Assembly: GCA_027371725.1 (NCBI GenBank)
Contig: DAHXMN010000001.1
Location: 400-64,399 of the forward strand
DNA length: 64,000 nucleotides
From: Candidatus Woesearchaeota archaeon
GTDB lineage: Archaea; Nanobdellota; Nanobdellia; Woesearchaeales; UBA525
Direction of reading: 5' to 3'
Below the pieces are notes generated by a model. It was given only the letters and a program-made list of their open reading frames with translations, made no database searches and was not told where the DNA came from. Position numbers and translations under genes: made by a program. The stretch's first letter is position 1. Each line of letters begins with the position of its first letter. Of the stretch, positions 8,728-33,366 are shown in pieces.

Positions 8728-8731
8728 TTAT
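8715..8731. repeat. attL: 17-bp core CCGGGCGGGGCTATTAT overlapping the tRNA-Gln(CTG) 3' end
   Basis: An identical 17-mer recurs at 30614..30630, and a 14/17 degenerate copy at 36044..36060. Confidence 0.8.
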
Positions 8732-8904: not shown

Positions 8905-8909
8905 GCCTC

Positions 8910-10253: not shown

Positions 10254-10415
10254 CCTTCTGTGACATTTCTTCCACCGTCGACACCTAGCTCAGGTATTTA
10301 AAAAGCCCCTCTCGGAGAACGTATATCGCGGCGGTGTGTTACCATTTCCGTGACCCTGCCGGGCTACGACGCCGTTGCCTAAGCCCTCTTCTACGATGAC
10401 GACCACTCAGAAAGT

Positions 10416-10562
10416 ATGGTCAAAACGAAGATGCTCGTCATCAGGATCACGGAGAAGCAAGAGCAAACGCTCCGGGAGATGATGCTTACGCTCGGTTTCA
10501 GAAAGAAATCGGAGTACATCCGCTCAGCACTCTTCAAAAACACCGGGGTGACGAAGAAATGA
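10416..10562 (+). CDS. small ribbon-helix-helix (CopG-like) protein, 48 aa
   Basis: MVKTKMLVIRITEKQEQTLREMMLTLGFRKKSEYIRSALFKN. Not in the ORF track (under 60 aa). ATGA overlap with the next ORF. Confidence 0.5.
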   Translation: MVKTKMLVIRITEKQEQTLREMMLTLGFRKKSEYIRSALFKNTGVTKK

Positions 10563-10753
10563 ACGAATTCGAACTCCTCAGGGGCGAACGCCGCAGCTTC
10601 TTCTGTCCGAACAAACTCTGGAAAGAGCTCCTCGCACAGACGGATGACTGCGTTAGCGTTAGCACCTTTATACGACAAGCGATAATTGAGAAGATGTCGA
10701 AGGAATCGCCTGAACGCGAAGAATATTTTCAGAGTCTGCTTACAAGTGATTGA
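10559..10753 (+). CDS. small putative DNA-binding (RHH-like) protein
   Basis: 64 aa ... STFIRQAIIEKM. Preferred over the antisense ORF 10391..10678. Confidence 0.45.
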   Translation: MNEFELLRGERRSFFCPNKLWKELLAQTDDCVSVSTFIRQAIIEKMSKESPEREEYFQSLLTSD

Positions 10754-10767
10754 GAATAAAACATTCT

Positions 10768-11808: not shown

Positions 11809-11826
11809 GATTTTTGCCTCATCTTG

Positions 11827-12597
11827 TTATTTATAAAACATTTTCTTTTTTGTCATTTTCAGCATCTTTTTGCTCTGTTTTCTTATGGTGACCTCTATCA
11901 CGCCAGTCGTGTTTGCCACCTGTCTCTGTGTTCTCAATTCGCTGTTCTCCTTCGCTGCGAGGTAGAGGGCTGCCGCTACGATGGTCTCGGGGCGTTGTCC
12001 CCTACTCTTTTGCCGCTCTACAATCTCGGCGGCCCGGCTGATGGTCTCTGCTTTGAGTTCAAGGCGTGAGCCGAAGCGCTGGACGAGATCTACGGGCTTA
12101 ATCGGGCTCAAGCGCAGGCCGAGCCCCCTAGTGAGGAGTCTGTAGGCTCTGAGCATCTTCGTCTTGCTGACGCTGCTGTAGGCCGTAATCTCCAGCGGTG
12201 TCTTGGGGATGTCGTGGAGGAGACAGGCGGCGTAGACGCTCGCGTAGAGGAGGCTCTGGTTGTCCCGTCCCCGATTGAGGCCTTTCTCGGCTGCTTGGGT
12301 GAAGATGAGGAAGGACTCGGTGGTAATCCGGTCTGGGAGCTTGAGCTTGCCCGTCAGGAGGCTAATCTGTGCCTTGGCGGCCTGGAGGTTCTTCTGCTTC
12401 GTGCTGAAGAGCCAGGCGGTTTTGACAATCCTGCCATCGTATTGGAACGTTCCGGCTGTCGCTACAGCGGGCTGCGCAGGGCGGTTTATTTCGCCTTGGT
12501 GCTCGGTTGGGCTGTCTTCGGTGATGAGGCCGCAGGCTATGCAGACGACCTCGTATCCGGCTTCTTTGAGGGTTCCGCCGCATTCAGGGCATCTCAT
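11827..12597 (-). CDS. tfb: transcription factor B (TFIIB) homologue encoded on the element
   Basis: N-terminal Zn ribbon MRCPECGG...VVCIACG, two cyclin-like repeats, and C-terminal HTH RTQRQVANTTGVIEVTIRK as in TFB. Confidence 0.75.
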   Translation of the reverse strand: MRCPECGGTLKEAGYEVVCIACGLITEDSPTEHQGEINRPAQPAVATAGTFQYDGRIVKTAWLFSTKQKNLQAAKAQISLLTGKLKLPDRITTESFLIFTQAAEKGLNRGRDNQSLLYASVYAACLLHDIPKTPLEITAYSSVSKTKMLRAYRLLTRGLGLRLSPIKPVDLVQRFGSRLELKAETISRAAEIVERQKSRGQRPETIVAAALYLAAKENSELRTQRQVANTTGVIEVTIRKQSKKMLKMTKKKMFYK

Positions 12598-12896
12598 GAT
12601 TCCACCTCCTCCGTGAAGTACAGGAGCACTGGCATGATCTTCTTTTCGTGGAGTTCCTTGACCCTTGCCAGTGCCTGTTCGACGCTGAGGCAGAGCTCCA
12701 TCTTGTAGCCTACCGGCTTGTCCCCTTCGAAAAGGTTCCTGATGGGCTTCTTCAGGTCTATTCTTCGTCTTCTATCGTTGTAGAAGACCTTGCCAGCGAC
12801 GCTGATAATTTTATCCTGCGTGGTGACTGGCTGCTGCATACAACACCCCCTTTGGCTTGTTGCTGTTGTTGCACTCCCAGCCGAATCAGAATTCAC
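12594..12896 (-). CDS. hypothetical small protein (start uncertain; could begin at MQQPVTT)
   Basis: ATGA overlap with tfb. No recognisable domain. Confidence 0.4.
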   Translation of the reverse strand: MNSDSAGSATTATSQRGCCMQQPVTTQDKIISVAGKVFYNDRRRRIDLKKPIRNLFEGDKPVGYKMELCLSVEQALARVKELHEKKIMPVLLYFTEEVES

Positions 12897-13356
12897 ACAC
12901 TAGGTGTTATTCTGCCTCCGGCGGGGACACGGATGCACTTAGCCTAGTACGGCAAGCGCATATCCCGGGGCTCGCAGCCGTAGCTAACACGGTGCTTCCA
13001 GAATTCGATGCCATTCGTGTTAGCCATAATAATCACTCCTTTGGAATGGTAGTAATTCGTTCCCCTATATAAATTTTCGCCGCCGTTGTCCGAAAGATTT
13101 TCGGATTCACTTGATTCGCTCCCAGCCGGACTGATCCTGCTGTGCGAGCCATGCTTCGAACTCTTCAGCGGTTACCACGAACCATTTCTCCATACGTTCC
13201 GGTTGCTTGTTCTGGTTCATATGTGTTCACCTCGTTCCGACGAAGGATTTTCGCGCCCCCGACGATTAGGACCCTATATTGGAGCCAATGGTGCCCGAAT
13301 TCGACGTTTATAGCCAGTATTAGGACCCTAAATCCGCCCATAATGTATGTTCTCCC

Positions 13357-16305: not shown

Positions 16306-16306
16306 G

Positions 16307-18331
16307 TTACATCATCGCTCCAATGTATTTTGCCGCTTGCATCATGCTCTGGGCCCCGTCGCTCATTCCGGACTTGGTCACGATGTGCTTGGCGAGCAGG
16401 AGGAATAGGAGGTCGATCATGAGGAAGCAGGTGATCATGACGACGATCTTGTACCCGGCAAAGAGGGGTAGGCTAATCATCTGGCTGCAGCCGAGGATGA
16501 TGACTGCGTCCAGGAACGTGACGAAGATGCACAGCCCCAGGAGATTCATGATGAGGTGGCCGTAGCTCCGTAGCGGTGGCATGAAGTAGCAGAACACCCC
16601 GATGGGTGCGAAGAGGACGCCGAACGCCACGATGAGGTAGCGCATGGCCAGGAAGAGCATCGTCACCAGCAAGACCAAGGCATACAGCCCGACCAGGAGG
16701 AGTTCCAAGCCGATGTTGCTGATGTTGTCCGCTGTCAGGAGGAAGAACTGCGGATTGACCAGGCTGAGAACTGCCTGGGTCATGAGGCCGCCGATATCGA
16801 CGATGAGTCCGTAGAGGTAGTAGCTGGCTTGGACGAGGACGATCATGATGACGGTGTTTTTGAGCCATTCCTTGGCCATTTCCCGCTTCAGGACGTTGTG
16901 GCCGCTGGTGAGGAACTGGTACCCGGCATAGAGGAACAGGAACCCGTAGAAGAGGCTCAGGCAGTAGACGATGATTACCCAGACGCCCTGGAAGAGGCTG
17001 ATGCTCGGGGAGGCCTCCAATAAGTCCTTTACGAGGCTCAGAAGCGGCTCCAGCGGGGCGTTGATGATGCTCAGGAGGAAGCTGTAGAGCGCCCCTGGGA
17101 GGCAACTGCCGAGGTTTGTGAGGCCACAATCCTCCGCCCGGACCATCGGCAAGGCCAAGAGGACGCCGAGGCCGATTCCGGGGAGCTTCCGCCAGTACTT
17201 ACGGGAAACCCGGTACGCGGCGACCAGGATGCCCGCGATGACGGCCATTTTGAGGATGAAGACCCAATCTACGGTGACGCTGGGCGGGGTGAACGCCGCG
17301 CTGGGAGGGGCTGAGAGGTTCTGGGCGCAGGGCTTGGTCTGGTTCGTGAAGAAGTCCTCAGCCCTGACCGTGCAGTTTGAGGCATTCGGCACGAAGAACG
17401 TCCCGTTGTACCAGCGGAGGTTCTGCGCCGTTTGGACCTCGAGCTTCTCCGCGTGAAGCTCCAGGAGGTAGAAGGGCTTCTTCGTGAAGTTCGCCGTGTA
17501 CACCCATTCCGTGGCGGAGTAGTTGCTTTGCCCCATGCTGAGCCAGACGCTCGTATTCGCATCATGGACCAGGAACGCCTTCGTAGTGCCCGAGTAGTTC
17601 GTGGCTAGGGTGAATGTGGCGTTCAGGGCGTGGCGGTCATACGTCGTGTTGAGGCTGTCGTTCAGGAGGAGGGTGTCCGTCGTGTAGTTTGTCTTGGTCT
17701 TTGGGCAGCGCCAGCAGTACCGGACGCAGACGCCGTTCCGGGTTCGACAGCAGTACTTCTGCCAGGTGTAGTAGTCGTTCTTGATTGTGGCACGGATGCT
17801 CAACTCCTCTCTGATATTCGCGTCAAAGATCAGGATGTTGATCGGGACGACTTTTCCGGTGCCCATCGTGATGTTGTTCGCCTTCGTTGTGAGGGTGCTC
17901 GTGTTCTCGGTGAGGTAGTGGAGTATCTTGCACGTTGCCCCATTGCTCTGCGAAGGATTAGTGTAATTTGCTGGCACCTTGATCCAGTAGCTCGCCTCGG
18001 AACGGACGGCCACCTTGGCCGGACAGTAGCGAGTCTTGTTGAGCAGGACGCTCGGCTGGATTGTCAAGAGGGCGACCCAGGCATCCATGATGACACCCTT
18101 CTGAATTTTAGTATAACCGAACGGCGCATTGTTGACGACGATGCCCTGATTGTAGGCGGCGATGGCTGCGTGGTCCGGGTGACTCGTGTTCGTGTAGATT
18201 AGGTTGGCGATGAGGTCTTCATTCACCGTCAAAGCGGCGAGGCAGTTCGTCTGGTTCTGGAAGTAGCTGCAGTTGAAGGCAGCGGTAGCTGGGACGAAAG
18301 CGAGAAATAAAAGGAGAAAAAGAGGTTTCAT
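16307..18331 (-). CDS. large polytopic membrane protein with a signal peptide and a heavily N-glycosylated ectodomain (VirB6/TrbL-like candidate)
   Basis: 674 aa. Signal MKPLFLLLFLAFVPATAA. About 25 N-x-S/T sequons in the first 350 aa. At least 6 C-terminal TM helices. Confidence 0.6.
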   Translation of the reverse strand: MKPLFLLLFLAFVPATAAFNCSYFQNQTNCLAALTVNEDLIANLIYTNTSHPDHAAIAAYNQGIVVNNAPFGYTKIQKGVIMDAWVALLTIQPSVLLNKTRYCPAKVAVRSEASYWIKVPANYTNPSQSNGATCKILHYLTENTSTLTTKANNITMGTGKVVPINILIFDANIREELSIRATIKNDYYTWQKYCCRTRNGVCVRYCWRCPKTKTNYTTDTLLLNDSLNTTYDRHALNATFTLATNYSGTTKAFLVHDANTSVWLSMGQSNYSATEWVYTANFTKKPFYLLELHAEKLEVQTAQNLRWYNGTFFVPNASNCTVRAEDFFTNQTKPCAQNLSAPPSAAFTPPSVTVDWVFILKMAVIAGILVAAYRVSRKYWRKLPGIGLGVLLALPMVRAEDCGLTNLGSCLPGALYSFLLSIINAPLEPLLSLVKDLLEASPSISLFQGVWVIIVYCLSLFYGFLFLYAGYQFLTSGHNVLKREMAKEWLKNTVIMIVLVQASYYLYGLIVDIGGLMTQAVLSLVNPQFFLLTADNISNIGLELLLVGLYALVLLVTMLFLAMRYLIVAFGVLFAPIGVFCYFMPPLRSYGHLIMNLLGLCIFVTFLDAVIILGCSQMISLPLFAGYKIVVMITCFLMIDLLFLLLAKHIVTKSGMSDGAQSMMQAAKYIGAMM

Positions 18332-18660
18332 CCGACCAGGTATTGCACGACGAGCGGTGCAACCCAGATGATGATGAGGCCCACCACGATGTACCCCGCC
18401 ATGGTCTTGGCGGACTCGCGTTTGGCCGTGTCGTCGCCGCTCATGATGAACGTGACACCCGCAAAGACGAGGAACAGCACGGCAAGGACCGTGGCCGCGT
18501 ACTTCACGAAGTTGTACACCTTCATCACAGGGCTCAATATCTGGTCGAACGTCGCTTGGTCCTGGGGCGAGATCGTCTGATTGAACTCGACCGCCATGAC
18601 GAGCGGCGTGATGCTCAGGAAGAGCATCACCAACAGCAAGGCAGTTTTCATTCTTGGCAC
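18328..18660 (-). CDS. pilin-like small membrane protein (VirB2/TrbC-like candidate)
   Basis: 110 aa with a signal peptide plus two hydrophobic helices. Overlaps the upstream gene (ATGA). Confidence 0.5.
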   Translation of the reverse strand: MPRMKTALLLVMLFLSITPLVMAVEFNQTISPQDQATFDQILSPVMKVYNFVKYAATVLAVLFLVFAGVTFIMSGDDTAKRESAKTMAGYIVVGLIIIWVAPLVVQYLVG

Positions 18661-18838
18661 CTCCGCGCTTCGAATGCCTCGAGACTACCGTACTTCCACT
18701 CGATGAAGGTGCGGCACGACTCGCACAGCTCCTCCTCGGGTGTGTCCTTCAGGCATAAGACGCAAATCATGCTAGAACAAGGCGCCTGAAAAGCCTAGAA
18801 AGGATGTCGGAGAACGTATTACATCGTTTGATGTTAGC

Positions 18839-20533
18839 TCATCTTGTGAGCTTAGCTATGAGATTCACAGAATATAATGCCAGAAGATGACGCAAGGGAA
18901 CGCCCCCTCGGGGAGGTTCTCCGCGATCAAACTGTATGTGATTGCCAAGGGGCAATATCACTGCTCCATATTTTTGTTCGGGGAAGTGTTTGTCGACTAG
19001 AGATTTGACCTTCGACAATGCTTCTCTCGGCGTGAAGTGTTGAGAATCTGGCTTAACCAAACAATATTGTTCCTGAAATTTCATCGCTGTAGGTATTCGT
19101 CCTGAGAATGTCCTCTCTACTTGCACCATAAATTCGTTCAGTTTTTCTTCATCCACATCCTTCAGGACTGCCTTGATTTGACTCTGAGTAGGAAGCGCTT
19201 TTTTCATACTGTCTTTTCCTGTTGCATGATGTATGCTCGCTTCCCATCTTATCTTCTTGTTCTGTTTATTCAGTGAGTTAGTGAGCTCGACTCTATAGTT
19301 CCCTTGCTTCAAGTCGGGTACAATCTCTGCAAATGTTGAGTAGATATCACGATTTCGTGATTTCTTAAGAGATGGCTGCTTTTCTCTGAGATTCGCAATT
19401 AGTTTCTCTTTCTCGGGCCGGTGTATAAATGCCTCTGAAGGTGTTCGTTTTTTATGCTCGATAAGTATTGCTCTGGCAAAAGCAGCCGACATCTTTGGGC
19501 ACACCGCATTTCCGACTAGCCGATACTTAGTCGATTCATTGCTTCCTTGAAAGAGATATGTGAGAGGAAACGACATTAAAGCGGCAACTTCTCGAATAGT
19601 TGGCGATCGATATATTTCTGGATGACCATTACGAAGAATCATTGATTCTCTCGACACTACCGATTTGGTCGCCATTACAGTCCTACTCGGTTTTGATTCG
19701 TCTTCTGGGAAGCTCATCCGACCATAGTATCTTGCTTGAAGCTTCTTGTTTCTTGCGTCTTCCCACTCGAAACGAGGTATCGTGGTGTCATAGAAATGAT
19801 CTGTAATCTGGATATTGGAGATAAGGATGCCGTAATTTGGATCTTTAATCTGCGACGCGGTTGAACGTAGGGCATCGAGCACATGTCCAAGAGTGACCCA
19901 GTCCTCTTGCGTCGGAGTCGTCGGGGTTGGTTTGATGAACTGACCACAAATGAATCGCTCTCTTCGTTGAGGAACTCCGAAGTGAACTGCGTTATGGACA
20001 TTCTCAAGAGATTTATCGATTCTCAAAGCAACGTCATTCTCGCTAAAATCAATTTTTAGGGCGCGAAGAGTCTTGTTGTCCAGCCCTAGCATCTTGAATG
20101 TGTACTCATCTTTGACATAATTGCGAGAATTTGGCACGTTCTCCATCAACCAATACTTCAATCGAGAGCCTTTCTTGTGCTTCTTAAGAGCGACAATCTG
20201 CAGATACTTCTCTATTAGTTGTATGCCAATCGTTTTGTTGGCGTTGCCTGCACGGTTTGATCCTGAAAATGCTACGCAAGGAGGACTGCCGACTATGACA
20301 TCAACATCGGGAATCATATCATGGGCGATGATTTGTTCAGGACTAAGTTCGAGTACGTCTGTGAGAAGTGTTTGCGCTCCCGGATGATTAAGCTTGAATG
20401 TATTTATGGCTGGTTTCCAATAATCCAGACCAAACTTCACTTCGAAGCCCATCTGTCTGAATCCCTCTGAGAAACCGCCCGCCCCGCAGAAGAAGTCGGC
20501 AACCGTCAGTTTATCTTCGGTCCTTTGCACCAT
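18839..20533 (-). CDS. DNA (cytosine-5)-methyltransferase with a roughly 200-aa C-terminal extension
   Basis: Motif I FCGAGGFSEGF, motif IV GSPPCVAFSGSN and motif VI LMENVPN. Confidence 0.85.
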   Translation of the reverse strand: MVQRTEDKLTVADFFCGAGGFSEGFRQMGFEVKFGLDYWKPAINTFKLNHPGAQTLLTDVLELSPEQIIAHDMIPDVDVIVGSPPCVAFSGSNRAGNANKTIGIQLIEKYLQIVALKKHKKGSRLKYWLMENVPNSRNYVKDEYTFKMLGLDNKTLRALKIDFSENDVALRIDKSLENVHNAVHFGVPQRRERFICGQFIKPTPTTPTQEDWVTLGHVLDALRSTASQIKDPNYGILISNIQITDHFYDTTIPRFEWEDARNKKLQARYYGRMSFPEDESKPSRTVMATKSVVSRESMILRNGHPEIYRSPTIREVAALMSFPLTYLFQGSNESTKYRLVGNAVCPKMSAAFARAILIEHKKRTPSEAFIHRPEKEKLIANLREKQPSLKKSRNRDIYSTFAEIVPDLKQGNYRVELTNSLNKQNKKIRWEASIHHATGKDSMKKALPTQSQIKAVLKDVDEEKLNEFMVQVERTFSGRIPTAMKFQEQYCLVKPDSQHFTPREALSKVKSLVDKHFPEQKYGAVILPLGNHIQFDRGEPPRGGVPLRHLLALYSVNLIAKLTR

Positions 20534-20651
20534 TCTGATCCACTAATTCTTAAACGATCTCCTAATCCCTTTATTTAAATGTTGTCACAGTCGATTCATT
20601 TTTAAAGATGCTGAGAATCAGAAGCCGCATCTGACGCAAGTGTTTGGACGC

Positions 20652-21563
20652 TTATTTCCAGTGCTTTTTGATATAGGCTGTTGCTTCTTTCGTGTTAAGT
20701 TGCTGAGTGGAATTGCCCGTACGTATGAAGAAGTGGGTGGTATCTTTGTTCTCGACATACACTGGTTCGGACGCTTTTTTGACTTGTACTGATGCGACTT
20801 TCTTCCCGTCATAATCTTCAAATGATGTCGAGATAAGCTGTGCATGCTCTTTACCAATATAGTTGCTGACGATTTCCCCTATTTTTAGCTGGAAACCATC
20901 CTCGTTCTGCTTTTTCAAGAGAGAGATGTCCTTTTCCAGTCCCAAGATATTCTTGTCATCATCTATCCCGATTATTAGTCTTCCACCGTCAGCATTCATG
21001 AACCCGGCGATGGTCTTCGCAATGGAGACAATCAAATCCTTGTTCGGTTTGTTTTGTTTATAGTCCCATTCTATAGACGATTTGAATTCGACTGTCTCAT
21101 CCTCGCGTAATGCTTCGAGGCCGGTTTTCTTCTCTCGAATCATTTCTCCTGCGAGTTTTGATGCTTCATTCATCTTTTGTTCCAGAAGAAGCATGAAATT
21201 CTCAGATGTTCTGTACTCCTCGATGAGTAGCTGTAACTCACTCAGGCCAGCTATGGAGTATTCCTCCGCAATCTTCTTGACCTCATTCATGTCCTTAAGG
21301 ATGAGCATATCGCCCGTCTCAGCGACCGCAATTGAGGTAATTAACCAGAGATCCGCGTCAGAAAAACTGTCTGTATTCAGCAAAGGATAGCGTTTGATTT
21401 CTTTTCGTTTCAGTCTCTTCACAAATGCAAGAGACATGCAAAGCATGAAAATGTGCTTTGCTTTCATATTCTGGAAGATGAATCCTTGCTCAAGGTCGTC
21501 GTATATCTTACGAGCGTCCCTGGTTATGTTCAGGTTCCTTCCAAAAAGTTCTCTTAGTTCCAA
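20652..21563 (-). CDS. AlbA_2 (Schlafen-like) domain protein with a DndE-like N-terminal region
   Basis: The C-terminal half (...ADGGRLIIGIDDDKN...FFIRTGNSTQ) is an AlbA_2 core. The N-terminal half (ITRDARKIYDDL...HIFMLCMSL) resembles, from memory, the DndE pattern (TGLxPNLLCRIGFCxSL). Overlaps the SMC-like gene. Confidence 0.5.
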   Translation of the reverse strand: MELRELFGRNLNITRDARKIYDDLEQGFIFQNMKAKHIFMLCMSLAFVKRLKRKEIKRYPLLNTDSFSDADLWLITSIAVAETGDMLILKDMNEVKKIAEEYSIAGLSELQLLIEEYRTSENFMLLLEQKMNEASKLAGEMIREKKTGLEALREDETVEFKSSIEWDYKQNKPNKDLIVSIAKTIAGFMNADGGRLIIGIDDDKNILGLEKDISLLKKQNEDGFQLKIGEIVSNYIGKEHAQLISTSFEDYDGKKVASVQVKKASEPVYVENKDTTHFFIRTGNSTQQLNTKEATAYIKKHWK

Positions 21564-23545
21564 CTCCGCACCTCAGTCACACCATGGCTCATCACGAAAC
21601 GAGATTCCTGAGCTATACGCTTAGAAAGCAAGTCTCTGATTGTGGCAGTATATTCCTGATCCTTCATCAGAAGGACAACCTGTGTTCCTTTGAGATAGTC
21701 TGGCAACTTCCGCGCCACATTCTCTCTTTGTTCATTATCTATGTTTGCTAGGGGCGTGTCGATGAATACTGGGAACTTGAATCCGGAGACCTCGCTCAAA
21801 GCAGCAATGAATGACAACAATAGGAGCTGTTTCGGACCACTTGCGAGATTGTGCATCCAGTTTGTTCCTTTGCCGTCGGTAAGTCTGAGGTCATAATCAT
21901 GATTGATTGTGAACTCAGTATATTTCTCTTTGTCCCAATGGAGTGTTTTGAAGTATTCCCATGTCTTCTCTTGCACTTGTTCTCTGACTTCCTGTAGAAT
22001 CTCTACCTCAATTTTATTCAGTGCATTTGATGCGCGATCAATAAACTCAGCGGTGACCTTCTTTCTTTCTCCGCCTTTCTTCTTCACACCTTCTTGATTG
22101 AGACTTTGTCGTAGTTGACTCAGTTGTCCAGTTCGTAGATTTATGGCGGCAGTCAATCTCGAGACGGAAGCTATTTGAGACTCTCTGTTTGTCATAAGAG
22201 ACTCGCGTTGATTTGTCTGTTGAATTATGTCGTCTTCTTTAGTGTCCTTAAGATTCTTTGATATTTCTTGAAGATCTTTATCGTGCTTTTTATTAAGTTC
22301 CACTAGTTTTTCGAGTTTCTTGTTCAGAGTGGCTATCTCGTTGAGTGATTGAGGGATTTCGCGCTCTAGAATATCGGTGATTCTGAATTTACCTTCTGAA
22401 AGCGTGGCCTTGAATTCATTGAAATTATTCTCTCTAATCTTTTCTTTTAAGAGAGTCACACATTCTTGGTCGTGAGTAGTGTTGAGCGTCCTCCCGCAGA
22501 CGCATTTCTTTTGTCGCAACAGTTCTTCAAGATATTTGTTGTCGATATTTGGCTGGAACTTATCCCTCTCTAATTCAGCATTTATTAGATTGATAAAGTT
22601 CTGCAACGCACCAGATGCGATGGCCAGAGGAGCGGATGATATGGCAATCGTTCTCAACTGTTTCTTGATTTGATCTATTTCTTGGTTATTGGAAGCAATC
22701 TTTTCACGGATATCGCGTTCTTGTCTCGCCCATTCTCGTATGAGTGGGATGTTATAGTCAGAGAGGAACTTCTCGATTCTGTCAATCTCCTCCTTTGCTT
22801 TGGCGATTTCTCCTTTTCGAGTTTCAATAGCTTCCGTATTTCTCGCTATATACTCCTCCGCCTCTTCAATCTCATGGTTCAATTTCGCCATTCCTGCATC
22901 GTATTCGTCGTCTTTATCGGAGGTCCATATCTGATCTCGGACTTTCTGGAGATGCTCTATCGCCAGCTTGACCTGTTTGATTTGAGAGGTTCTTTCGATT
23001 GCTTGGCGGATGTTCTCGTTGTTATTGAATGAGAAGTGCTTTTCGAGCTTCTCACCTTCAAACATGAAAAAGAGGTGGATTTCCCTCGGCAATATGCTGT
23101 TTATTACATTAGTAAAATTATACTCGGGAACGGGTCTACAGTCGTTCTTTTCCCATTCCATTATTGAGCCGGTCGGCTCTTTTAAGATGTGCATCTTGTT
23201 ATTGAGCTTCTGGTACATTGCATCCCGTTTAATCACATAAATGGGCAAATCCGTTTCATCGTCGTTCAAGGTGATTTCAACATAGACGCTATCAATCTCC
23301 TTCTCCTTCATATCGTGTTGTCTGGCGACAGTAAATGCGGGCAAAGTGTGGTCATGACCTGAACTGGTCTCCTCACCATACAAACACCAAGCAATAGCTG
23401 AGAGGAAAGTGGTCTTACCAACGTCAGATTTAGCTTCAATCACAGAAAACTTGTTTTTTGCCTCTTTCTTGAACGTTACAACTATTGGCTTCTCCGGATT
23501 GCTGAACGGACGGAAGTTCTTGAGTTTGATTTCAGAGATCCACAT
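21554..23545 (-). CDS. DndD/SbcC/SMC-like coiled-coil ATPase
   Basis: 663 aa. N-terminal Walker A KSDVGKTTFLSAIAWCLYGE, a long coiled-coil middle, and a C-terminal ABC-type signature/Walker B region ...FPVFIDTPLANID. Confidence 0.7.
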   Translation of the reverse strand: MWISEIKLKNFRPFSNPEKPIVVTFKKEAKNKFSVIEAKSDVGKTTFLSAIAWCLYGEETSSGHDHTLPAFTVARQHDMKEKEIDSVYVEITLNDDETDLPIYVIKRDAMYQKLNNKMHILKEPTGSIMEWEKNDCRPVPEYNFTNVINSILPREIHLFFMFEGEKLEKHFSFNNNENIRQAIERTSQIKQVKLAIEHLQKVRDQIWTSDKDDEYDAGMAKLNHEIEEAEEYIARNTEAIETRKGEIAKAKEEIDRIEKFLSDYNIPLIREWARQERDIREKIASNNQEIDQIKKQLRTIAISSAPLAIASGALQNFINLINAELERDKFQPNIDNKYLEELLRQKKCVCGRTLNTTHDQECVTLLKEKIRENNFNEFKATLSEGKFRITDILEREIPQSLNEIATLNKKLEKLVELNKKHDKDLQEISKNLKDTKEDDIIQQTNQRESLMTNRESQIASVSRLTAAINLRTGQLSQLRQSLNQEGVKKKGGERKKVTAEFIDRASNALNKIEVEILQEVREQVQEKTWEYFKTLHWDKEKYTEFTINHDYDLRLTDGKGTNWMHNLASGPKQLLLLSFIAALSEVSGFKFPVFIDTPLANIDNEQRENVARKLPDYLKGTQVVLLMKDQEYTATIRDLLSKRIAQESRFVMSHGVTEVRSWN

Positions 23546-23732
23546 CTTTGTGCTCCTTCTGGCTGTATCCGTCCGCCCACTGTTTGTAGGAGTCGGTGTA
23601 TCTTCCTTTGGCCGCCGAGAGGTTCTTTAATTCATTCTCAAGAACATCGAGCAGAAACGATTTCAAATGCTCGCTTTCGTCTAATTCGGAGATTTTCCTT
23701 GTGATTATCTTATTCAGTTCTGATCGTCTCAT
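23532..23732 (-). CDS. small helical protein (66 aa) embedded in the operon
   Basis: Its start overlaps the helicase stop (ATGA at 23729-23732) and its 3' end overlaps the SMC start. Confidence 0.45.
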   Translation of the reverse strand: MRRSELNKIITRKISELDESEHLKSFLLDVLENELKNLSAAKGRYTDSYKQWADGYSQKEHKDVDL

Positions 23733-25873
23733 TGTGGTACGCTCAACAGGGCTTGATATTTAGTCAGATTATTCTTTACGGTCAAGGGGTTCCTTGCTGA
23801 CTGCAGGAACTCGTCAACCCTCAATAACTCCCGCCTTAACGCTGAACGCTCTGACTCCGATATTTTTAAAGGTATTCTTTCCCAAGGGAAAACCAAGACG
23901 TCATGTATAATCGAGAACTCTTTTCCCGGCGAGCGTCTCAGTATTCTCCCTCTTCTTTGAATAAACTCTACCGGATTCCCGCTACTCGCCAAAATAATTG
24001 CTCTTTCAATTCCTGGGACGTCGATACCTTCATCTAGGACCTTCATAGCAATCACTGCTTGATATTTGTCCTCCTGGAACAACCTTATGATTTCTTGCCT
24101 ATATTCAAGGCTTTCTTCATGAGTTATCTGATGAGCCCTAATTTTCTTGTCGTGCAGTATCTCCTTGACCCGTTCTATCTGTTTATCGGAACAATAGATT
24201 AGTGTTCGTTTAATATCTGGTATTGAAGAAAGGATTTTCTCAAAAGCAGCCCATTTTGCCTCAGCATTAACGAGTATTCTTGACCGCTCAAGAATCATCA
24301 TGAATATTTTATCGTCGACTTTTCCCTTGTTGGCGTGTATTGCTCGTGCTATCCGAGTTGAAAGCGACTCATATTTTTCTCTTTCTTCATCAGTCAATAT
24401 AGCAATTTCCGCATAATATTCGTATTCGGTCAGAAACTCAGGTATGGCCTGTTTCATGCTGAATTCAAAACATATCCCTTCAAAGTAGTCGAGTAGTTCC
24501 TGTGTCCCTTCGGGGTCCATGTATATCTCTGGTGTGGCGCTCAGACCAAGACGACCGATAAACTCCGGAAGCATCCCTTTCCTTGTCTCAGGTGCCCACG
24601 CGTGATGTACTTCGTCGCAGACCAATAGCTTGGTCTCTTCAGTTTTATTCACGAAATCTATTAAATCCTTCGAACAGAATGAATCATATGTTGCTACAGC
24701 AAAAAGATTCTCGGCTCTTCCTAGACGAAGCTTCAGAATCCCCGTCTTCAAGTCGGCAGCCCACACGGATTTGTTCTGCATGACTGGAATTATGTTTTTG
24801 AAACCTTCCGCCTCTAGGTTTTCTATCCATTGGGAGACGAGTAGCTGTGTTGGTGCAACAATCACTACCAACGACTTAGGATATCTTTTCAGGAAGGCGT
24901 CTATGGCGCGTAGAGCAGTGAATGTCTTTCCCGTTCCAGTCGCCATCTTCAATATGCCCTTAAAATTCTTCGACCAGTTCCTGATGGCCTCTTCTTGGTA
25001 CTCCCTGAGCTCCCTTCTCGAAGGTTCTTTCTGCTCCCGTCTAAATGAGTATCTCCCTTTGTACTCGTCCTTGGCTCTCCTCAGACAGTATTCTGAGAGC
25101 GTGTTGAATTCTTCTTCGGTCTTCGGTGATCGCTGTATTAGTTGTTTTTTGAAAGCATCACTAATCGGATAAACGCGCATATTCCCTGTCAAGTCATTCC
25201 AGAGCTCTTCGAAGTCCTCAAGATCGTGTTTTAGGTGTCGCTCTTTGTCGGATTCCACCCACCCTAGGTAGACGTGGAATTTTTCGTGGTTAAATAACCA
25301 TCCAGATGCGGTCTCGTTATCTGACCCGAAAAACTCAATCATGTTTCCGGAGGAATCTTCAAGAATGCCATATTTCTGGTGTTCTATTCCTTTGTTGCCA
25401 CCAGGAACTGCTATGCGAATTTCCAGACGACCACTTCTTACCATCCATCCAAGCATCTTTAGATGATCTTTCTTTAATTCATCTTCGCTGCAATCAATTT
25501 CGGTGATGATGCTCTTTTCAGCTTCACTGATTGCTCTTGCTATTGTCTCCGCGTCGACTTCACTCAGCTTCACACTCGTAATCAGTTGCATACGACCGCC
25601 ATTCTTGATGAACTCAGCCATCCCTTTTGCTGCTACGGCCAGAGAGCTAGAAGAGAAGAACCCTGAGACGCGCTTGTAGGTTACTGCCCGGGACAAAGCA
25701 GGAATATAGAATGAGTCCAGAACGTCTTCTTTCGCAGAGTCATAGACTCCTTTGCTTTCCAAGCCTAAATCCCTGAGGCTCATGCTCGAGCTAATTGATT
25801 CGCTTTTAAAAAGGTATCTCGATAAATTCCAGTTTACGCACACGTTCAACAGCAAAATGGGCGTATTTTGCAT
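23729..25873 (-). CDS. fusion of a phospholipase-D (HKD) nuclease domain and an SF2 helicase (ResIII/DEAH-like)
   Basis: HKD motif HQKYGILED. Helicase motif I ATGTGKTF, motif II LLVCDEVHHAW, motif III SATP and motif VI QRRGRILRR. Confidence 0.75.
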   Translation of the reverse strand: MQNTPILLLNVCVNWNLSRYLFKSESISSSMSLRDLGLESKGVYDSAKEDVLDSFYIPALSRAVTYKRVSGFFSSSSLAVAAKGMAEFIKNGGRMQLITSVKLSEVDAETIARAISEAEKSIITEIDCSEDELKKDHLKMLGWMVRSGRLEIRIAVPGGNKGIEHQKYGILEDSSGNMIEFFGSDNETASGWLFNHEKFHVYLGWVESDKERHLKHDLEDFEELWNDLTGNMRVYPISDAFKKQLIQRSPKTEEEFNTLSEYCLRRAKDEYKGRYSFRREQKEPSRRELREYQEEAIRNWSKNFKGILKMATGTGKTFTALRAIDAFLKRYPKSLVVIVAPTQLLVSQWIENLEAEGFKNIIPVMQNKSVWAADLKTGILKLRLGRAENLFAVATYDSFCSKDLIDFVNKTEETKLLVCDEVHHAWAPETRKGMLPEFIGRLGLSATPEIYMDPEGTQELLDYFEGICFEFSMKQAIPEFLTEYEYYAEIAILTDEEREKYESLSTRIARAIHANKGKVDDKIFMMILERSRILVNAEAKWAAFEKILSSIPDIKRTLIYCSDKQIERVKEILHDKKIRAHQITHEESLEYRQEIIRLFQEDKYQAVIAMKVLDEGIDVPGIERAIILASSGNPVEFIQRRGRILRRSPGKEFSIIHDVLVFPWERIPLKISESERSALRRELLRVDEFLQSARNPLTVKNNLTKYQALLSVPQ

Positions 25874-26540
25874 CGAGTTCGCAACCGAGGAATTGTCTGC
25901 CTGTCTGGCGTGCCGCTACGGCTGTGCTGCCGACCCCCATGAATGGGTCTAAAACCACATCTCCGGGCTTGCTAGAGGCCTCTATGAGGCGTTTAAGCAC
26001 CGCCAGGGGTTTCTGAGTGGGGTGAACTGAGCCGCCTTCTGGGCTGCGGAGTCGTTCTGCCCCGGTCAGGATTGGGGTGATGAAGAGGTTCTTCATGGCC
26101 CCTTGGCTGGGGAAGTTGAAGGTAATCTTGTTGAGCTTGACCTTCTCGTTGACGGCGTAGACGATGTATTCGTTGGCGAAGACCCAGTTGGTCTTGCTCA
26201 GGCGGGGTGGCGGGTTGGTCTTGCTCCAAACGAGGAGGTTGCGGAAGAACCAGGCCTCCTGGAAGATGCGCATGTAGATGGGGATTTGTTCGGTGCTGCA
26301 GAACACGTAGATCTGCCCGGTCGGCTTCAGGACGCGCTTGAGCTCCTTCATGACCGGGACGGGGTCGAAGCCATAGTCCCAGTCGCCGAAGTCCTTCCGG
26401 ATATGCCGTCCATCGTAGACGAGGTTTTGTTTTCTGGAGATGTTGTAGGGTGGGTCGGTCACGACGAGATCGACGCTGTTGTCAGGCAGTTCTTTGAGAT
26501 ATTCGAGGCAATCCATGCAGGCGATGGTGTTCAGTTTCAT
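25806..26540 (-). CDS. beta-class DNA methyltransferase (N6-adenine or N4-cytosine; DPPY type)
   Basis: DLVVTDPPYNI near the N-terminus. Its 3' end overlaps the helicase start. Confidence 0.8.
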   Translation of the reverse strand: MKLNTIACMDCLEYLKELPDNSVDLVVTDPPYNISRKQNLVYDGRHIRKDFGDWDYGFDPVPVMKELKRVLKPTGQIYVFCSTEQIPIYMRIFQEAWFFRNLLVWSKTNPPPRLSKTNWVFANEYIVYAVNEKVKLNKITFNFPSQGAMKNLFITPILTGAERLRSPEGGSVHPTQKPLAVLKRLIEASSKPGDVVLDPFMGVGSTAVAARQTGRQFLGCELDAKYAHFAVERVRKLEFIEIPF

Positions 26541-26604
26541 GCCCTGTAACGGGTTGCACTTTCAGAAATTCGGGACTCGGAAAATGTACATCAAAAAAGA
26601 AGTT

Positions 26605-26736
26605 TTAGTCACGGCCCTCATTAGCACCATCTTCGAACCCGTCCTGGTAGAGCTTGTTTAGGACGGTGTCGAGCTCTTCCTTCGTCTTGGCCGTCTTGAC
26701 CGCTTTCCGATACCCCTGTAAGTACTTGTCCGCCAT
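26605..26736 (-). CDS. tiny conserved ORF (43 aa), copy 1
   Basis: MADKYLQGYRKAVKTAKTKEELDTVLNKLYQDGFEDGANEGRD. A 41/43-identical paralogue is at 33222..33353. Confidence 0.45.
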   Translation of the reverse strand: MADKYLQGYRKAVKTAKTKEELDTVLNKLYQDGFEDGANEGRD

Positions 26737-26748
26737 GTCATTCACCCC

Positions 26749-26877
26749 CTATTCTCGCAATAGATCGTCGAAATCGACGTAGTCATGCGGGTTCTCCACG
26801 TTCCGGAACTGGCGCAGCCGATCATCCCGGAAGAACCGCTTCCCTTTCATTTCCACTATTGGTAGTTGGGTTACCAT
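26749..26877 (-). CDS. tiny conserved ORF (42 aa), copy 1
   Basis: MVTQLPIVEMKGKRFFRDDRLRQFRNVENPHDYVDFDDLLRE. A paralogue with one substitution is at 33367..33495. Confidence 0.45.
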   Translation of the reverse strand: MVTQLPIVEMKGKRFFRDDRLRQFRNVENPHDYVDFDDLLRE

Positions 26878-27424
26878 AGGTTATCGCCTCCTTAGAAAGC
26901 CCGAGCCTGAACGAGGCGATTATTCTGTCTCGGAGAATGTATGACATCTGAAGCCACTGGTCAACCGCGCGCAGCGCATTTAAGCCGATCTCACCTTCTT
27001 CGTGAGTGGCGCTTCACATCCTCAAGGGCAACGGGAGGGCGCTCGATCACGACGTCGTCCGGTTCGCGTTAGCGTACACGCCATGCCTCCTCGTAGATTG
27101 TGCAGACGCGGCCGACCCATACCAACACCCAGACACAGATGTTGCGACGTTCCTTGCAGTTCATGTGGTTCAGGCGGAACTCCTGTACCGGCTCCGAGAC
27201 ATCCTCCGCGCCCTGCCGCAGACCGTGCGGCGGCTCGGCGTCAAACGTGTCGTCATCACGCAATTCACGCGCCTTTTCCATTATCACGATGAGGCGGAGA
27301 ACGCGGATATTTACGAGGAAGTGTGGCGGCGGATCGGCGAAGCTGCAAAGGAGCTCGACGTCGTTGTCGGCGTTCCGGAGGGATCAGTCCATGAGGCGTA
27401 TGCGGAACGCCTCGGAGGGTTAAG

Positions 27425-27745
27425 ATGGGACACACGGTCAGCAGCCAACGACACGTCACCGACGTCCTCCTCGAAGAGTTCAAGGCCTATGGGAGCAGCT
27501 TGCGACAGGATGAGCGCGTCATGTATGAGCGTCTTGTCAAGCAGGCGTTGAAACACGTGGGGAGCGTCACGTACACGAGCAGCACCGAAGCATGGGCGTT
27601 CGTCCTCCTCAGCATGATGCTCGAACAAGAAAAACGGATTAGCGCCTTGGAGGGACAGAATGAAAGCGTGGTTCATGGACGCGTACCGACACCAGAGCAA
27701 CCTCATCCTCTGGTTCAAGACGCCGGACGAGAACATACGACTTGA
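27425..27745 (+). CDS. hypothetical helical protein (106 aa); may be frameshift-fused to the upstream ORF 27006..27551
   Basis: Plausible K/E-rich sequence. Overlaps the PolB start. Confidence 0.35.
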   Translation: MGHTVSSQRHVTDVLLEEFKAYGSSLRQDERVMYERLVKQALKHVGSVTYTSSTEAWAFVLLSMMLEQEKRISALEGQNESVVHGRVPTPEQPHPLVQDAGREHTT

Positions 27746-29831
27746 GCGACCACTCCGCACCACCATCTACCTCGAAGCAACCCAACAAGCAGAAGAATAC
27801 CTCACTCACCAGACAATCCCGTTTCGTCGTGTCCGGCGACAGAACTATCGCAGGGAATGGCAGGACGTCTTCGAGATTGTCGTCCCTCATCTGGCCATGT
27901 TCGAGCGCTTCGTCCGATGGATCGAAGAAGGTACGAAGCACCAGGTCGCCCTCTACAACGCAGACATCACCCCGGAACAACGCTTCCTTTACGAGCACGG
28001 CCTCAGCGCCGGAACAACCGTCCTCCTCGACGGCGAGGAGTTCCACGTTCTTGACTCCAACGAAGCGGCCCCTTTCACCGTCGCACGGCTCACCGTCAGA
28101 ACTGACAAGCCCGTGGCGGCGGCAGAAGATACGCCGATACGCGGAATAGAACTAAACGAGACCCGGTTCGACGGGGAAGAACACTCGGTTCTTGAACGGT
28201 TCGCGGCGGCGTTTGTTCGTCTTGATCCGGACATCATCATCCTCGAACACGGCTACGCAGTCCTACCACACCTTGTTCGCCGCCTAGCAGCCCACAAGCT
28301 CTCAGTCGCGTTTCACCGTTGGGACGACACGCCAATCACTTACAAGGGTGGCAGGACGTTCTTCACCTACGGCAGGGTCCGTTACCAAGACTACGCCCTC
28401 GTCCTCCACGGACGGTTCCTCATTGACACGATGACGACCGTGGGAAGCACGTGCTCGCCGGATGGCATCCTCGAACTCTGCCAGCTCAGCGGGGTCCGGT
28501 TTCCGCAGGTCTGCGCCCGGAGCTTCGGAGCAGCCTTCCAAGGCGCACTCGTCAAGCAACTCCTTGCCCACCACTTCCTCGTTCCGTTCAAAGAGAAGCC
28601 CATCGACGAGCCCTTGAGCTTCATCGACCTTGTCAAAGGCGATCGAGCAGGCCAGTACCTTGATCCGGTCCTTGGCTTCCATCAGAACGTGGCAGAAATC
28701 GATTTCTCCTCGATGTATCCGTGGCTCATGTTCAACTACAACATCAGCGCTGAAGCCCTCCAATCAAAAGAAGAACCCCTCGTCGATGTACCAGGGCTTC
28801 CGCTCACGGTCTCGCACCGGCATAAAGGACTCGTCCCGCTGGCGATTAAGCCGTTCTTGGAGCGGCGTATGGCGTACAAGCGCACCCCAACCCCTGTTCA
28901 CAAGGAGCGTGCAGCTGCGCTGAAATGGGTCCTCGTGAGCAGCAACGGCTACCTGCGTTTCCGCGAGTTCAAGCTCGGCCTCCACACGAGCCATATGGCG
29001 CTCTGCGCCTACGCCCGCGAAACACTCCTCGCCTCGATGCGGCTCGCCGAAGAACAAGGATTCCGAGTCCTGCACGGCATCGTCGACAGCCTCTACCTCA
29101 CCAAACCAGGCATGACTGAGGAAGACGTCCGACGCTTCGCCAAAGACCTCGAAATCCTGACGGGCATCCCGGTCAGCATGGACGGCATCTTCAAATGGGT
29201 CGTCTTCCTCCCCAGCATCAACGACGACGACCGGGCACTCCCGGCACGGTACTACGGCGTCTTCACGGATGGCGAGATCAAAGCGCGTGGCCTTGAAGTC
29301 CGACAACTCAGCAGCGCACGCGTCGTCCAAGAATTCCAACACGAAATCCTCCAAGCCTTGAGCACCTGCTCCACCGCCGAGGAGATCAGAGAGGCGGCGC
29401 CCTTGCTCTGTCGGTTGCTTCGGCGGTTGCTCGGACGACTCGACCACGTCCCCCCGGAGTGGCTGACAATAAAGGTCTGTCTGAGCAAGACCGAGTACAA
29501 GCACAACGTCCCGCAAAAAGCCGTCGTCGAAGCCTACGCGAAACGAGGAATCCCTATCCAGCCTGGCCAATTCGTTCGCTACCTCTACCAAGAATCAGGT
29601 CCAGTCATCCCCGAGGACTACACCGGACCACCCGACGCAGACCGCTACGAAGCCCTATTGACCCGCGCCCTCTTCATCGTCCTCCAGCCCTTCGGTTTCA
29701 GCCGCGAATGGATTAGGGACCACACCCAACAAAGCCGACAGACGAGAGTCCCCGAATATGGAGAGATATTCGATAATACATTAAAGCTGCACGACCTTCC
29801 TGGTGCCTCATGTGCGGACGCTTCACCCTGA
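27660..29831 (+). CDS. family-B DNA polymerase, compact and apparently exonuclease-deficient
   Basis: Motif A EIDFSSMYPWLM (DxxSxYP), motif B-like LVSSNGYLRF, motif C HGIVDSLYL (a YGDTDS variant) and KxRG as IKARG. No recognisable ExoI DxE. Confidence 0.65.
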   Translation: MKAWFMDAYRHQSNLILWFKTPDENIRLERPLRTTIYLEATQQAEEYLTHQTIPFRRVRRQNYRREWQDVFEIVVPHLAMFERFVRWIEEGTKHQVALYNADITPEQRFLYEHGLSAGTTVLLDGEEFHVLDSNEAAPFTVARLTVRTDKPVAAAEDTPIRGIELNETRFDGEEHSVLERFAAAFVRLDPDIIILEHGYAVLPHLVRRLAAHKLSVAFHRWDDTPITYKGGRTFFTYGRVRYQDYALVLHGRFLIDTMTTVGSTCSPDGILELCQLSGVRFPQVCARSFGAAFQGALVKQLLAHHFLVPFKEKPIDEPLSFIDLVKGDRAGQYLDPVLGFHQNVAEIDFSSMYPWLMFNYNISAEALQSKEEPLVDVPGLPLTVSHRHKGLVPLAIKPFLERRMAYKRTPTPVHKERAAALKWVLVSSNGYLRFREFKLGLHTSHMALCAYARETLLASMRLAEEQGFRVLHGIVDSLYLTKPGMTEEDVRRFAKDLEILTGIPVSMDGIFKWVVFLPSINDDDRALPARYYGVFTDGEIKARGLEVRQLSSARVVQEFQHEILQALSTCSTAEEIREAAPLLCRLLRRLLGRLDHVPPEWLTIKVCLSKTEYKHNVPQKAVVEAYAKRGIPIQPGQFVRYLYQESGPVIPEDYTGPPDADRYEALLTRALFIVLQPFGFSREWIRDHTQQSRQTRVPEYGEIFDNTLKLHDLPGASCADASP

Positions 29832-30469
29832 TAACGCCGATGAACGAGCTCGTCCAACGCTTCCGAGTAGAAGCACCCAGCAAAGAATGGAAAGCACGGT
29901 ACAACGCGGCACCCACGCAGGAACTCCTCATCATCCCCCAGGATTACCCTGAGAAGATCGTGGCGGCGCGATGGGGCCTCGTTCCGCATTGGGCGAAGGA
30001 CACGAGCATCGGCTACAAAATGATCAACGCCAAAGCAGAAACCCTCGCAGAAAAACCCTCCTACAAGCCCCTCCTCGGACAAAAACGGTGCCTCGTCCTC
30101 GCCGACGGGTTCTACGAATGGAAACACGTCGGCAAGACAAAAACCCCCTTCAGAATCACCAAGCCCGACGGCAAGGCATTCGCCTTTGCCGGTCTCTACG
30201 ACGACTGGAAGCACGACGGCGAAACCCTCCGCAGCTTCACCATCATCACCACCGAACCAAACCCAATCATGAAGCCGATTCACGACCGCATGCCAGCAAT
30301 CCTCCCCGCAGAAAAGGAGCAAGAATGGCTCACAGGCGAGTCAGCCTCCGCCCTCAAACTCCTCAAGCCATTTGCAGGCAAACTCGCCCTACAGCAAGTC
30401 TCGGAGAAAGTCAACATTCCCGCAAATGACGACCCATCCGTCCTCAAAGGACCGCAACTACTCCGATAG
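29810..30469 (+). CDS. SOS-response-associated peptidase (SRAP/YedK/HMCES family)
   Basis: N-terminal MCGRF (catalytic Cys2). About 220 aa with a family-like sequence throughout (…WGLVPHW…). Confidence 0.8.
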   Translation: MCGRFTLITPMNELVQRFRVEAPSKEWKARYNAAPTQELLIIPQDYPEKIVAARWGLVPHWAKDTSIGYKMINAKAETLAEKPSYKPLLGQKRCLVLADGFYEWKHVGKTKTPFRITKPDGKAFAFAGLYDDWKHDGETLRSFTIITTEPNPIMKPIHDRMPAILPAEKEQEWLTGESASALKLLKPFAGKLALQQVSEKVNIPANDDPSVLKGPQLLR

Positions 30470-30474
30470 ATAGT

Positions 30475-30630
30475 CATTCTCCGAGGCAAGCTAACAAACA
30501 ATCGCAGACATTCTCATGGCATGAACGAGAATTTTATAAACCGCATCACACCCATTCACACTAGCACGCTGGAGGACTGGTGGAGTCCTCTCGATACCGG
30601 GAACGGCTCACCGCCGGGCGGGGCTATTAT
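30475..30630. repeat. element right-end repeat A (about 155 bp) ending in the attR 17-mer (30614..30630)
   Basis: About 75% identical to 35900..36060. Contains catgaacgagaattttataaa, atcacacccattca and gagtcctctcgatac blocks. Confidence 0.7.
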
Positions 30631-33165: not shown

Positions 33166-33221
33166 CGGGTTGCACTTTCAGAAATCCGGGACTCGGAAAA
33201 TGTACATCAAAAAAAGAAGTT

Positions 33222-33353: not shown

Positions 33354-33366
33354 GGCGTTCACCCCC

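Follow-up and report, generated by a model that had tools for sequence, protein, structure and literature searches.

A stretch of 64,000 nucleotides (nt) from a Candidatus Woesearchaeota archaeon (contig DAHXMN010000001.1), here referred to as the window, carries two minus-strand open reading frames (ORFs) at 23729-26540, a DPPY-type methylase gene upstream and a PLD-helicase gene downstream. An earlier note on this DNA had taken them for an uncommon Type III-like restriction-modification (R-M) pair. That description is replaced here by an already catalogued defence system. In fact, the PLD-helicase gene is pbeA, the first gene of a PbeABCD-plus-methylase system, a kind that has already been described bioinformatically. 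Five genes, pbeA-pbeB-pbeC-pbeD-dcm, form a low-GC cassette (Table 1), whose GC contents of 42–45% contrast with 55–58% in the flanks, the shifts lying at about 18800 and 25880. We regard the locus as likely to be a methylase-linked PbeABCD system, centred on a CxC ABC ATPase and a DndE-like protein.

PbeA is recognized over its full length by the PADLOC PbeA profile (residues 39–699 of the long ORF, E 2.9e-218), and TIGR04095 (dnd_restrict_1) also matches it with 386 bits, under its cut-off of 600. The longest pbeA ORF begins at ATG 25873 and encodes 714 amino acids (aa), and only with this start does the gene overlap the stop of the methylase, the overlap from which the earlier note had derived a translational coupling of the two. 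However, gene calls on two independent assemblies start pbeA at ATG 25783 (684 aa), the PADLOC profile starts only at residue 34–39 of the 714-aa ORF, and the alignment with the nearest homologue begins at that protein's own Met (MGFKDL versus MSLRDL). Since these three lines agree, we placed the start at ATG 25783; the extension to 25873 is not real. Therefore a spacer of 22 nt follows the methylase stop (25806-25808), and there is neither overlap nor translational coupling between methylase and pbeA. The starts and stops of pbeA, pbeB, pbeC and pbeD do overlap, and these genes are arranged as one operon, in which pbeA is translationally coupled to pbeB/C/D.

The N-terminal part of PbeA is a PLD domain with a single HKD motif. 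HQKYGILED, correctly placed by the earlier note within the first 200 residues, occupies residues 135–143, and an alignment of 66 homologues shows no variation at H135, K137, D143, G153, S154, N156 and E157 (684-aa numbering). The HKD motif is thus real, although its reading as HxKx4D was not exact: the motif is strictly HxKx4E-D, with the invariant Asp one position later than in the canonical form. The PLD signature HxK(x)4D(x)6GSxN is also present with slightly longer spacing, 9 residues from Asp to GS. An AlphaFold2 (AF2) model of residues 1–262 has a mean predicted local distance difference test (pLDDT) score of 82, and a Foldseek search of the PDB with it returned PLD-family proteins only, with HKD nucleases on top (SauUSI 7clg, BfiI 2c1l, NucT, Zucchini, NgoAVII and Nuc; E 5e-8 to 6e-5, probability 1.0). 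The HKD motif therefore sits inside a PLD fold, the point on which the earlier note had let its proposal depend, and the N-terminal PLD nuclease fused to an SF2 motor stands as proposed. The domain aligns as a single lobe (template modelling score 0.6, normalised to Nuc/NucT). No second HKD copy was found, other H.K strings in PbeA being unconserved in the motif scan and the 66-homologue alignment. With a single HKD lobe per chain, dimerisation of PbeA is expected by analogy.

The rest of PbeA is the SF2 motor. The full motif set listed earlier (ATGTGKTF, DEVHH, SATP and QRRGRILRR) was recovered, and Pfam matched ResIII (1.7e-24) and Helicase_C (9.2e-16) as well as DEAD. In a PDB profile search, archaeal XPB/Rad25 (2e-50) came ahead of SauUSI (3.5e-24). 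The likeness to XPB suggests, by analogy, translocation on or opening of double-stranded DNA rather than classical unwinding. The chain ends about 65 residues past motif VI, and its sole nuclease domain is the N-terminal PLD domain. This architecture is not uncommon, contrary to what had been supposed: we counted 3410 homologues at E<=1e-10 among the candidates, and the architecture has been published as PbeA (PMC6459918, PMC10853773).

The matches to SauUSI could also be read as pointing to a modification-dependent, Type IV-like enzyme, in which the PLD-helicase attacks methylated foreign DNA. The PLD domain has its best structural match in SauUSI, which is found by sequence too, and PADLOC reports mREase_IV with E 2.7e-19. 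However, the SauUSI and mREase_IV matches extend over no more than the PLD lobe or the helicase, the PADLOC one aligning just residues 553–659 of PbeA with profile positions 450–557 of 953, and the short tail after motif VI holds no SRA-like or DUF3427 reader domain. Moreover, the co-inherited C5 methylase would make an enzyme dependent on 5-methylcytosine (5mC) self-destructive. We consider a Type IV-like enzyme extremely improbable.

Some observations concern the DNA in front of pbeA. The 22-nt spacer and the methylase stop (25784-25812, minus strand) read CCTTTTTAAAAGCG...ATG. A T5 run at the methylase stop and TTTAAAA 22–29 nt before the pbeA ATG were spotted by eye, and could be an archaeal terminator and the TATA box of a leaderless pbeA transcript. 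A scan of 18.6–27 kb for bacterial promoters and terminators gave counts at chance level, bacterial models being ill-suited to an archaeon. The regions upstream of pbeA in relatives are not alignable with it.

The next three genes also correspond to the published cassette. The product of pbeB had no family match in Pfam, PADLOC and NCBIfam scans. ORFs of 60–70 aa hold its position in all close relatives with 32–58% identity, and the published PbeB has the same size of 66 aa (PMC6459918); pbeB is likewise a small, fast-evolving gene between pbeA and pbeC. In PbeC, TIGR03185 (DndD) scores E 5.9e-45, under its cut-off. The window protein and six close relatives keep the pattern K-C-[VI]-C-G-R near residue 348, and a Walker-B-type motif, DTPLANID, is present. 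PbeC is the SMC-like neighbour mentioned in the earlier note, whose aside that the PLD-helicase might be the effector of an adjacent SMC module was essentially right, since it is the PbeA of a pbeA-B-C-D operon. For the N-terminal domain of PbeD, TIGR04062 (dnd_assoc_4) gives E 3e-7, under its cut-off, and PF27807 a weak match; the domain is 39–62% identical to the 140–145-aa PbeD at the same position in relatives. PADLOC returned no match for PbeB or PbeD.

The fifth gene, dcm, encodes a C5 cytosine methylase with all catalytic motifs present (FCGAGG, PPC, ENV, QRR and GNAV), and is likely the cognate modification gene of the cassette. Its linkage can be followed in seven distinct loci, those of the closest PbeA relatives (52–63% identity; contigs of Methanolobus, Methanococcoides, ANME-2-like and metagenomic origin). 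The order pbeA, 61–70-aa ORF, pbeC holds in 7/7 of them, and pbeD follows wherever the contig reaches (6/7). A Dcm of 541–746 aa is found in the five with enough flank; L088 has a Dcm-type C-terminal fragment at the contig end, and the contig of L091 stops inside pbeC. A PF01555 (DPPY) methylase occurs in none of the seven. From gene content, then, the conserved modification partner in this PbeA clade appears to be the downstream C5 methylase.

This Dcm carries a conserved C-terminal domain, shared with the pbe-linked Dcm of relatives through 18 invariant columns. Methylases with the same extension adjoin pbeABCD in L023, L083, L087, L088, L089 and L090. The domain has no significant match in Pfam per-member scans or in a PDB profile search, and only 31 cluster representatives among 1.84 billion proteins; as sampled, it is found in pbeABCD-linked C5 methylases. 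It could be the “MTaX1” domain, which accompanies methylase-linked systems (PMC10853773). We also noted that Vsr and a 450–474-aa MutH-domain protein often stand beside Dcm in the Methanosarcinales-type relatives L083, L085, L087, L089 and L090; tblastn found no Vsr or MutH-like gene in the window.

The PbeABCD cassette was described by Xiong et al. 2019 (PMC6459918), and its original definition linked it to dndCDEA. Within the 64-kb window this linkage is absent: Pfam ORF scans and a local profile revealed no DndC-like, DndA-like, PAPS-reductase or second DndD-like ORF. The local DndC profile was built from 39 DndC-like ORFs beside PbeA homologues, its seed was checked (DndC at 662 bits), and it was run on all stop-to-stop segments. 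In a more distant set of 80 genomic loci (PbeA identity 27–38%), a DndC-like PP-loop gene occurs in 39 and is of the canonical type in about 21; these 39 matches are heterogeneous, one tested being canonical (662 bits) and two belonging to other PP-loop subtypes under the DndC cut-off. Xiong et al. also found that 155 of 320 solitary pbeAC adjoin methylases, and predicted methylase-linked Pbe systems. According to Krishnan et al. 2024 (PMC10853773), C5 and/or permuted N4 methylases take the place of phosphorothioation in CxC/DndE systems. The absence of dnd genes thus places the locus in the methylase-linked subset of the latter study, not outside the family. DISARM was weighed as another assignment, since Dcm matches DrmMII models (E 9e-27), and was ruled out, DrmA/DrmB being absent and the matches to Pbe much stronger.

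We then consider the DPPY methylase, which the earlier note had rightly called beta-class: DPPY lies near the N-terminus and an FxGxG-type S-adenosylmethionine-binding motif (DPFMGVGST) near the C-terminus, the beta-class order. The Mod subunits of Type III systems are beta-class as well. In the Type III-like reading, this methylase and the PLD-helicase are a self-contained R-M pair, in which the methylase marks and targets the DNA and the helicase-nuclease restricts it. The shared class fits such a pair, and so do the position of the two genes, adjacent on the same strand with their 22-nt spacer, and the presence of a PF01555-type methylase directly upstream of pbeA in 5/80 distant loci. However, PbeA is coupled to pbeB/C/D instead of the methylase, and it has no C-terminal PD-(D/E)xK domain. 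The 244 aa of the methylase leave no room for a Mod-type recognition domain; its best PADLOC matches are Type II/orphan methylase models, and its best NCBIfam match is CcrM-like. The GC content also differs, 0.55 in the methylase versus 0.44 in pbeA and 0.42–0.45 in the cassette, and the methylase is missing from all seven closest loci.

Moreover, close homologues of the methylase (77–88%) sit in the same mobile-element backbone with other cargo and no pbe. One such locus, L094, has an integrase (40%), the methylase (77%), a 40-aa ORF, a PycTM gene, TrbC (69%), p674 (45%) and TraC (71%). In L092 (88%) and L093 (82%), the two small ORFs upstream of the methylase are kept at 86–100% identity, with other cargo downstream. 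Because of these homologue neighbourhoods, which are decisive, together with the GC difference and the absence from the closest pbe loci, we conclude that the DPPY methylase is a backbone gene of the mobile element and probably not a partner of pbeA. The simplest view is that it is a methylase of orphan or anti-restriction type; a Type III-like pair is very improbable.

A milder alternative is a dual-mark system, in which the C5 and DPPY methylases both give protective marks read by PbeABCD, the DPPY enzyme having been co-opted after the cassette was inserted. Its adjacent, co-oriented gene suits this proposal, as do the PF01555 methylases near pbeA in 7/80 distant loci. However, DPPY is found more typically in N6-adenine enzymes than in N4-cytosine ones, with which the CcrM-like match agrees, and the backbone context and GC composition of the methylase speak against it too. 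Homologues of the methylase are 62–88% identical across unrelated taxa (Nanoarchaeota, Woesearchaeota, Actinomycetota and others), whereas PbeA is already at 63% identity in its nearest relative; therefore the two do not co-evolve. We regard a dual-mark system as unlikely.

Several points nevertheless weigh against a PbeABCD system with Dcm as its methylase. The DPPY gene is only 22 nt upstream of pbeA on the same strand, and the five distant loci with this arrangement (L032, L040, L041, L048 and L057) show that it recurs, although the PF01555 methylases of the distant loci are only 24–35% identical to that of the window. Permuted N4 methylases are mentioned as partners in PMC10853773, and beta-class methylases can partner Pbe in other lineages. 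The assignment of the PbeD N-terminal domain comes from sub-threshold profile matches and synteny. Finally, the only tested Pbe system, a phosphorothioation-linked one from Haloterrigena, showed no DNA cleavage, and loss of the modification was not toxic (PMC6459918); an R-M-like cutting step is therefore uncertain. Pbe cutting is disputed in the literature, PMC6459918 having seen replication arrest without degradation and PMC10853773 arguing for cleavage.

What is published on the family, together with the analogy to Nuc, BfiI and SauUSI, allows a mechanism to be proposed for the methylase-linked PbeABCD system. Dcm, whose catalytic motifs are intact, would mark a sequence motif on resident DNA. 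PbeC, a coiled-coil ABC ATPase with a CxC zinc hook, and the DndE-like DNA binder PbeD would scan the DNA and read target sites, presumably as a PbeC2-PbeD complex, as we infer from PMC10853773. On unmarked foreign DNA the complex would engage PbeA, whose XPB-like SF2 motor would translocate on double-stranded DNA with ATP. A nick or cut in the DNA, or at least a replication block, would then come about when two PbeA molecules meet; two would be needed because each PbeA has one HKD lobe, and solved single-HKD nucleases form the active site between two lobes. PbeB, small and fast-evolving, may act as a regulator.

The window cassette has the same four-gene order as the known PbeABCD (PMC6459918, PMC10853773): an HKD-SF2 PbeA, a PbeB of about 66 aa, a CxC coiled-coil ABC PbeC and a DndE-like PbeD. 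Unlike PbeABCD as originally defined, it is without dndCDEA and has a C5 methylase with an extra C-terminal domain; unlike the described systems, its PbeD has an additional Schlafen/AlbA_2 domain, and the cassette is carried as cargo by an integrated archaeal element of conjugative type. SauUSI (Type IV, 7clg) shares the N-terminal single-HKD PLD and the SF2 ATPase, but it has a C-terminal SRA-type reader of 5mC and 5-hydroxymethylcytosine and works alone, whereas PbeA has no reader and forms part of a four-gene operon accompanied by a methylase. Type III R-M enzymes (EcoP15I Mod/Res) are alike in placing an ATP-dependent SF2 motor beside a beta-class methylase, with a presumed modification-based self/non-self logic. 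However, Res has a C-terminal PD-(D/E)xK domain and needs a large Mod with a recognition domain, whereas the window has an N-terminal PLD nuclease and a 244-aa Type II-like methylase of separate origin; in the window system target reading is probably done by PbeC/PbeD. Each chain of Nuc, BfiI, NucT and Zucchini, like that of PbeA, has a single HKD lobe in which H, K, N and E are intact, and their active site is made by dimerisation; the PbeA lobe differs in being fused to a translocase and in its shifted Asp. Among solved structures the motor is closest in sequence to archaeal XPB/Rad25, a protein of repair and transcription that carries no PLD domain.

As a finding, the locus is ordinary. It offers a clean and compact archaeal example of PbeABCD travelling together with a C5 methylase in place of the phosphorothioation genes, and it documents a variable cargo slot and a rare DndE-Schlafen fusion. 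The methylase-linked Pbe class is so far a prediction, and a self-contained cassette of 7 kb is a convenient construct for the question of cutting versus replication block.

The fusion in PbeD is the one unusual feature of the locus. PF04326 (AlbA_2) matches the C-terminus with E 3.8e-21, the AF2 model of this part has pLDDT >95, and Foldseek with it returned DIP2311, the SAMD9 tRNase domain and SLFN13/11/14. The acidic residues E154, E159 and D202 are kept in all of 40 sequences, in a spacing that we take to resemble the E-x4-E...D site of SLFN proteins. The DndE + AlbA_2 architecture is rare, occurring in only four clusters among the proteins returned from 5.8 billion clusters: that of the window, L088 (the 63%-identity relative), P0245 and an Actinomycetota protein. 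P0245 sits in a dndBCDE-linked pbeABCD locus. The tally was taken from Pfam architectures; counts from an iterated AlbA_2 profile were discarded because it had strayed into the DndE part of the fused proteins. The fusion goes unmentioned in the main text of PMC10853773.

The AlbA_2 domain may contribute a second nuclease, or no more than the binding of DNA or RNA. A bolder proposal is that PbeD in this sub-lineage has gained a catalytically competent Schlafen-type nuclease domain, so that the Pbe complex would have two effectors; we hold this to be rather improbable. If it were true, the first effector would be the PbeA PLD nuclease acting on invader DNA, and the second a Schlafen-like RNase/tRNase or single-stranded DNA nuclease, fired when PbeCD senses unmodified DNA and serving as an abortive-infection arm. 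Such a system would be a prokaryotic counterpart of the SLFN11/SAMD9-type translation shutdown, tied to an epigenetic self/non-self sensor. As a separate observation, a second AlbA_2/Schlafen ORF lies near the left window edge (405-1175, plus strand, 256 aa, PF04326 E 9e-21). It is 30% identical to the PbeD domain over 116 aa, has no domain assigned in its N-terminal half, and overlaps a tRNA-like repeat at 756-787.

The wider surroundings of the cassette are those of a mobile element, with the gene order tRNA-Gln, integrase, TFB, VirB4/TraC, TrbC pilin, cassette, methylase, PolB, SRAP and att-like repeat. TFIIB and deoxyhypusine synthase genes point to an archaeal host, with about 60–65% GC. 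There is a good probability that the cassette was acquired as a five-gene unit and is seated in the cargo slot of an archaeal conjugative-type element integrated at tRNA-Gln, between the DPPY methylase and the TrbC pilin gene. The position downstream of the backbone methylase is occupied by pbeABCD-dcm in the window, by PycTM in L094, by a reverse transcriptase (RVT_1) in L093 and by a Rce1-like/CPBP gene in L092. On the simplest reading, it behaves as a variable cargo slot of an archaeal element family, between the backbone methylase and trbC, and it is possibly a defence hotspot. PolB and SRAP inside the element suggest that it brings its own replication and damage-tolerance genes.

Table 1. 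Features of the pbeABCD-dcm cassette and the surrounding element, in coordinates of the window.
Feature	Position	Strand	Description
Integrated conjugative-type element	8655..30630	.	From tRNA-Gln through integrase to att-like partial repeat
tRNA-Gln	8655-8727		Integration site of the element
Integrase	8910-10253		Beside tRNA-Gln
Cassette pbeA-pbeB-pbeC-pbeD-dcm	~18.8-25.9 kb	-	Five genes, 42–45% GC
dcm	18839..20533	-	564-aa C5 cytosine methylase after pbeD; PF00145 E 2.8e-38
Dcm C-terminal domain	18842-19438	-	~170–200 aa, conserved
pbeD	20652..21563	-	303 aa; TTG start, 10-nt overlap with pbeC; DndE-like N-domain and Schlafen/AlbA_2 C-domain
Schlafen/AlbA_2 domain of PbeD	~20655-21116	-	PF04326
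DndE-like N-domain of PbeD	~21129-21563	-	TIGR04062, weak PF27807, synteny
pbeC	21554..23545	-	663 aa; coiled-coil CxC ABC ATPase; PADLOC PbeC E 2.2e-150
CxC (KKCVCGR) of PbeC	22496-22504	-	~residue 348
pbeB	23532..23732	-	66 aa; ATG within pbeA stop (ATGA); 3' end overlaps pbeC by 14 nt
pbeA	23729..25783	-	684 aa; N-terminal single-HKD PLD domain and XPB-like SF2 translocase; PADLOC PbeA E 2.9e-218
SF2 helicase/translocase core of PbeA	23834..25021	-	Q motif to motif VI; Pfam ResIII, DEAD, Helicase_C
QRRGRILRR	23933-23959	-	SF2 motif VI region
SATP	24530-24541	-	SF2 motif
DEVHH	24602-24616	-	SF2 motif
ATGTGKTF	24920-24943	-	SF2 motif
PLD (HKD) domain of PbeA	25139..25783	-	~residues 1–215; AF2 model and Foldseek
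GSxN motif of PbeA	25310-25327	-	
HKD motif HQKYGILED	25355-25381	-	Residues 135–143 of 684-aa PbeA
DPPY N6/N4 methylase	25806..26540	-	244 aa, beta-class, PF01555 E 2.8e-44
Two small ORFs s42-s43	26605-26736, 26749-26877	-	43 aa and 42 aa; travel with DPPY methylase
Family-B DNA polymerase (PolB), then SRAP	27660-30469	+	PolB weak Pfam E 2e-10; SRAP E 1.3e-72
att-like partial repeat	30599-30630		Right end of the element

The ends of the element are marked by repeats. A copy of the 3' end of tRNA-Gln(CTG) (8700-8731) stands at 756-787 (94%) and a partial one at 30599-30630; related att-like blocks lie at 30475-30628 and 35904-36058 (80–84%). These repeats suggest that two elements integrated in tandem at a single tRNA gene, one intact and about 22 kb long (8.7–30.6 kb), the other decayed (30.6–36.06 kb). 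A direct repeat of 520 nt, 26435-26945 versus 33051-33563, is 86–91% identical and comprises the 5' end of the methylase gene with s42-s43. The copy at 33051-33563 keeps only the first ~34 methylase codons, with DPPY changed to DQPY, and is a pseudogene remnant.

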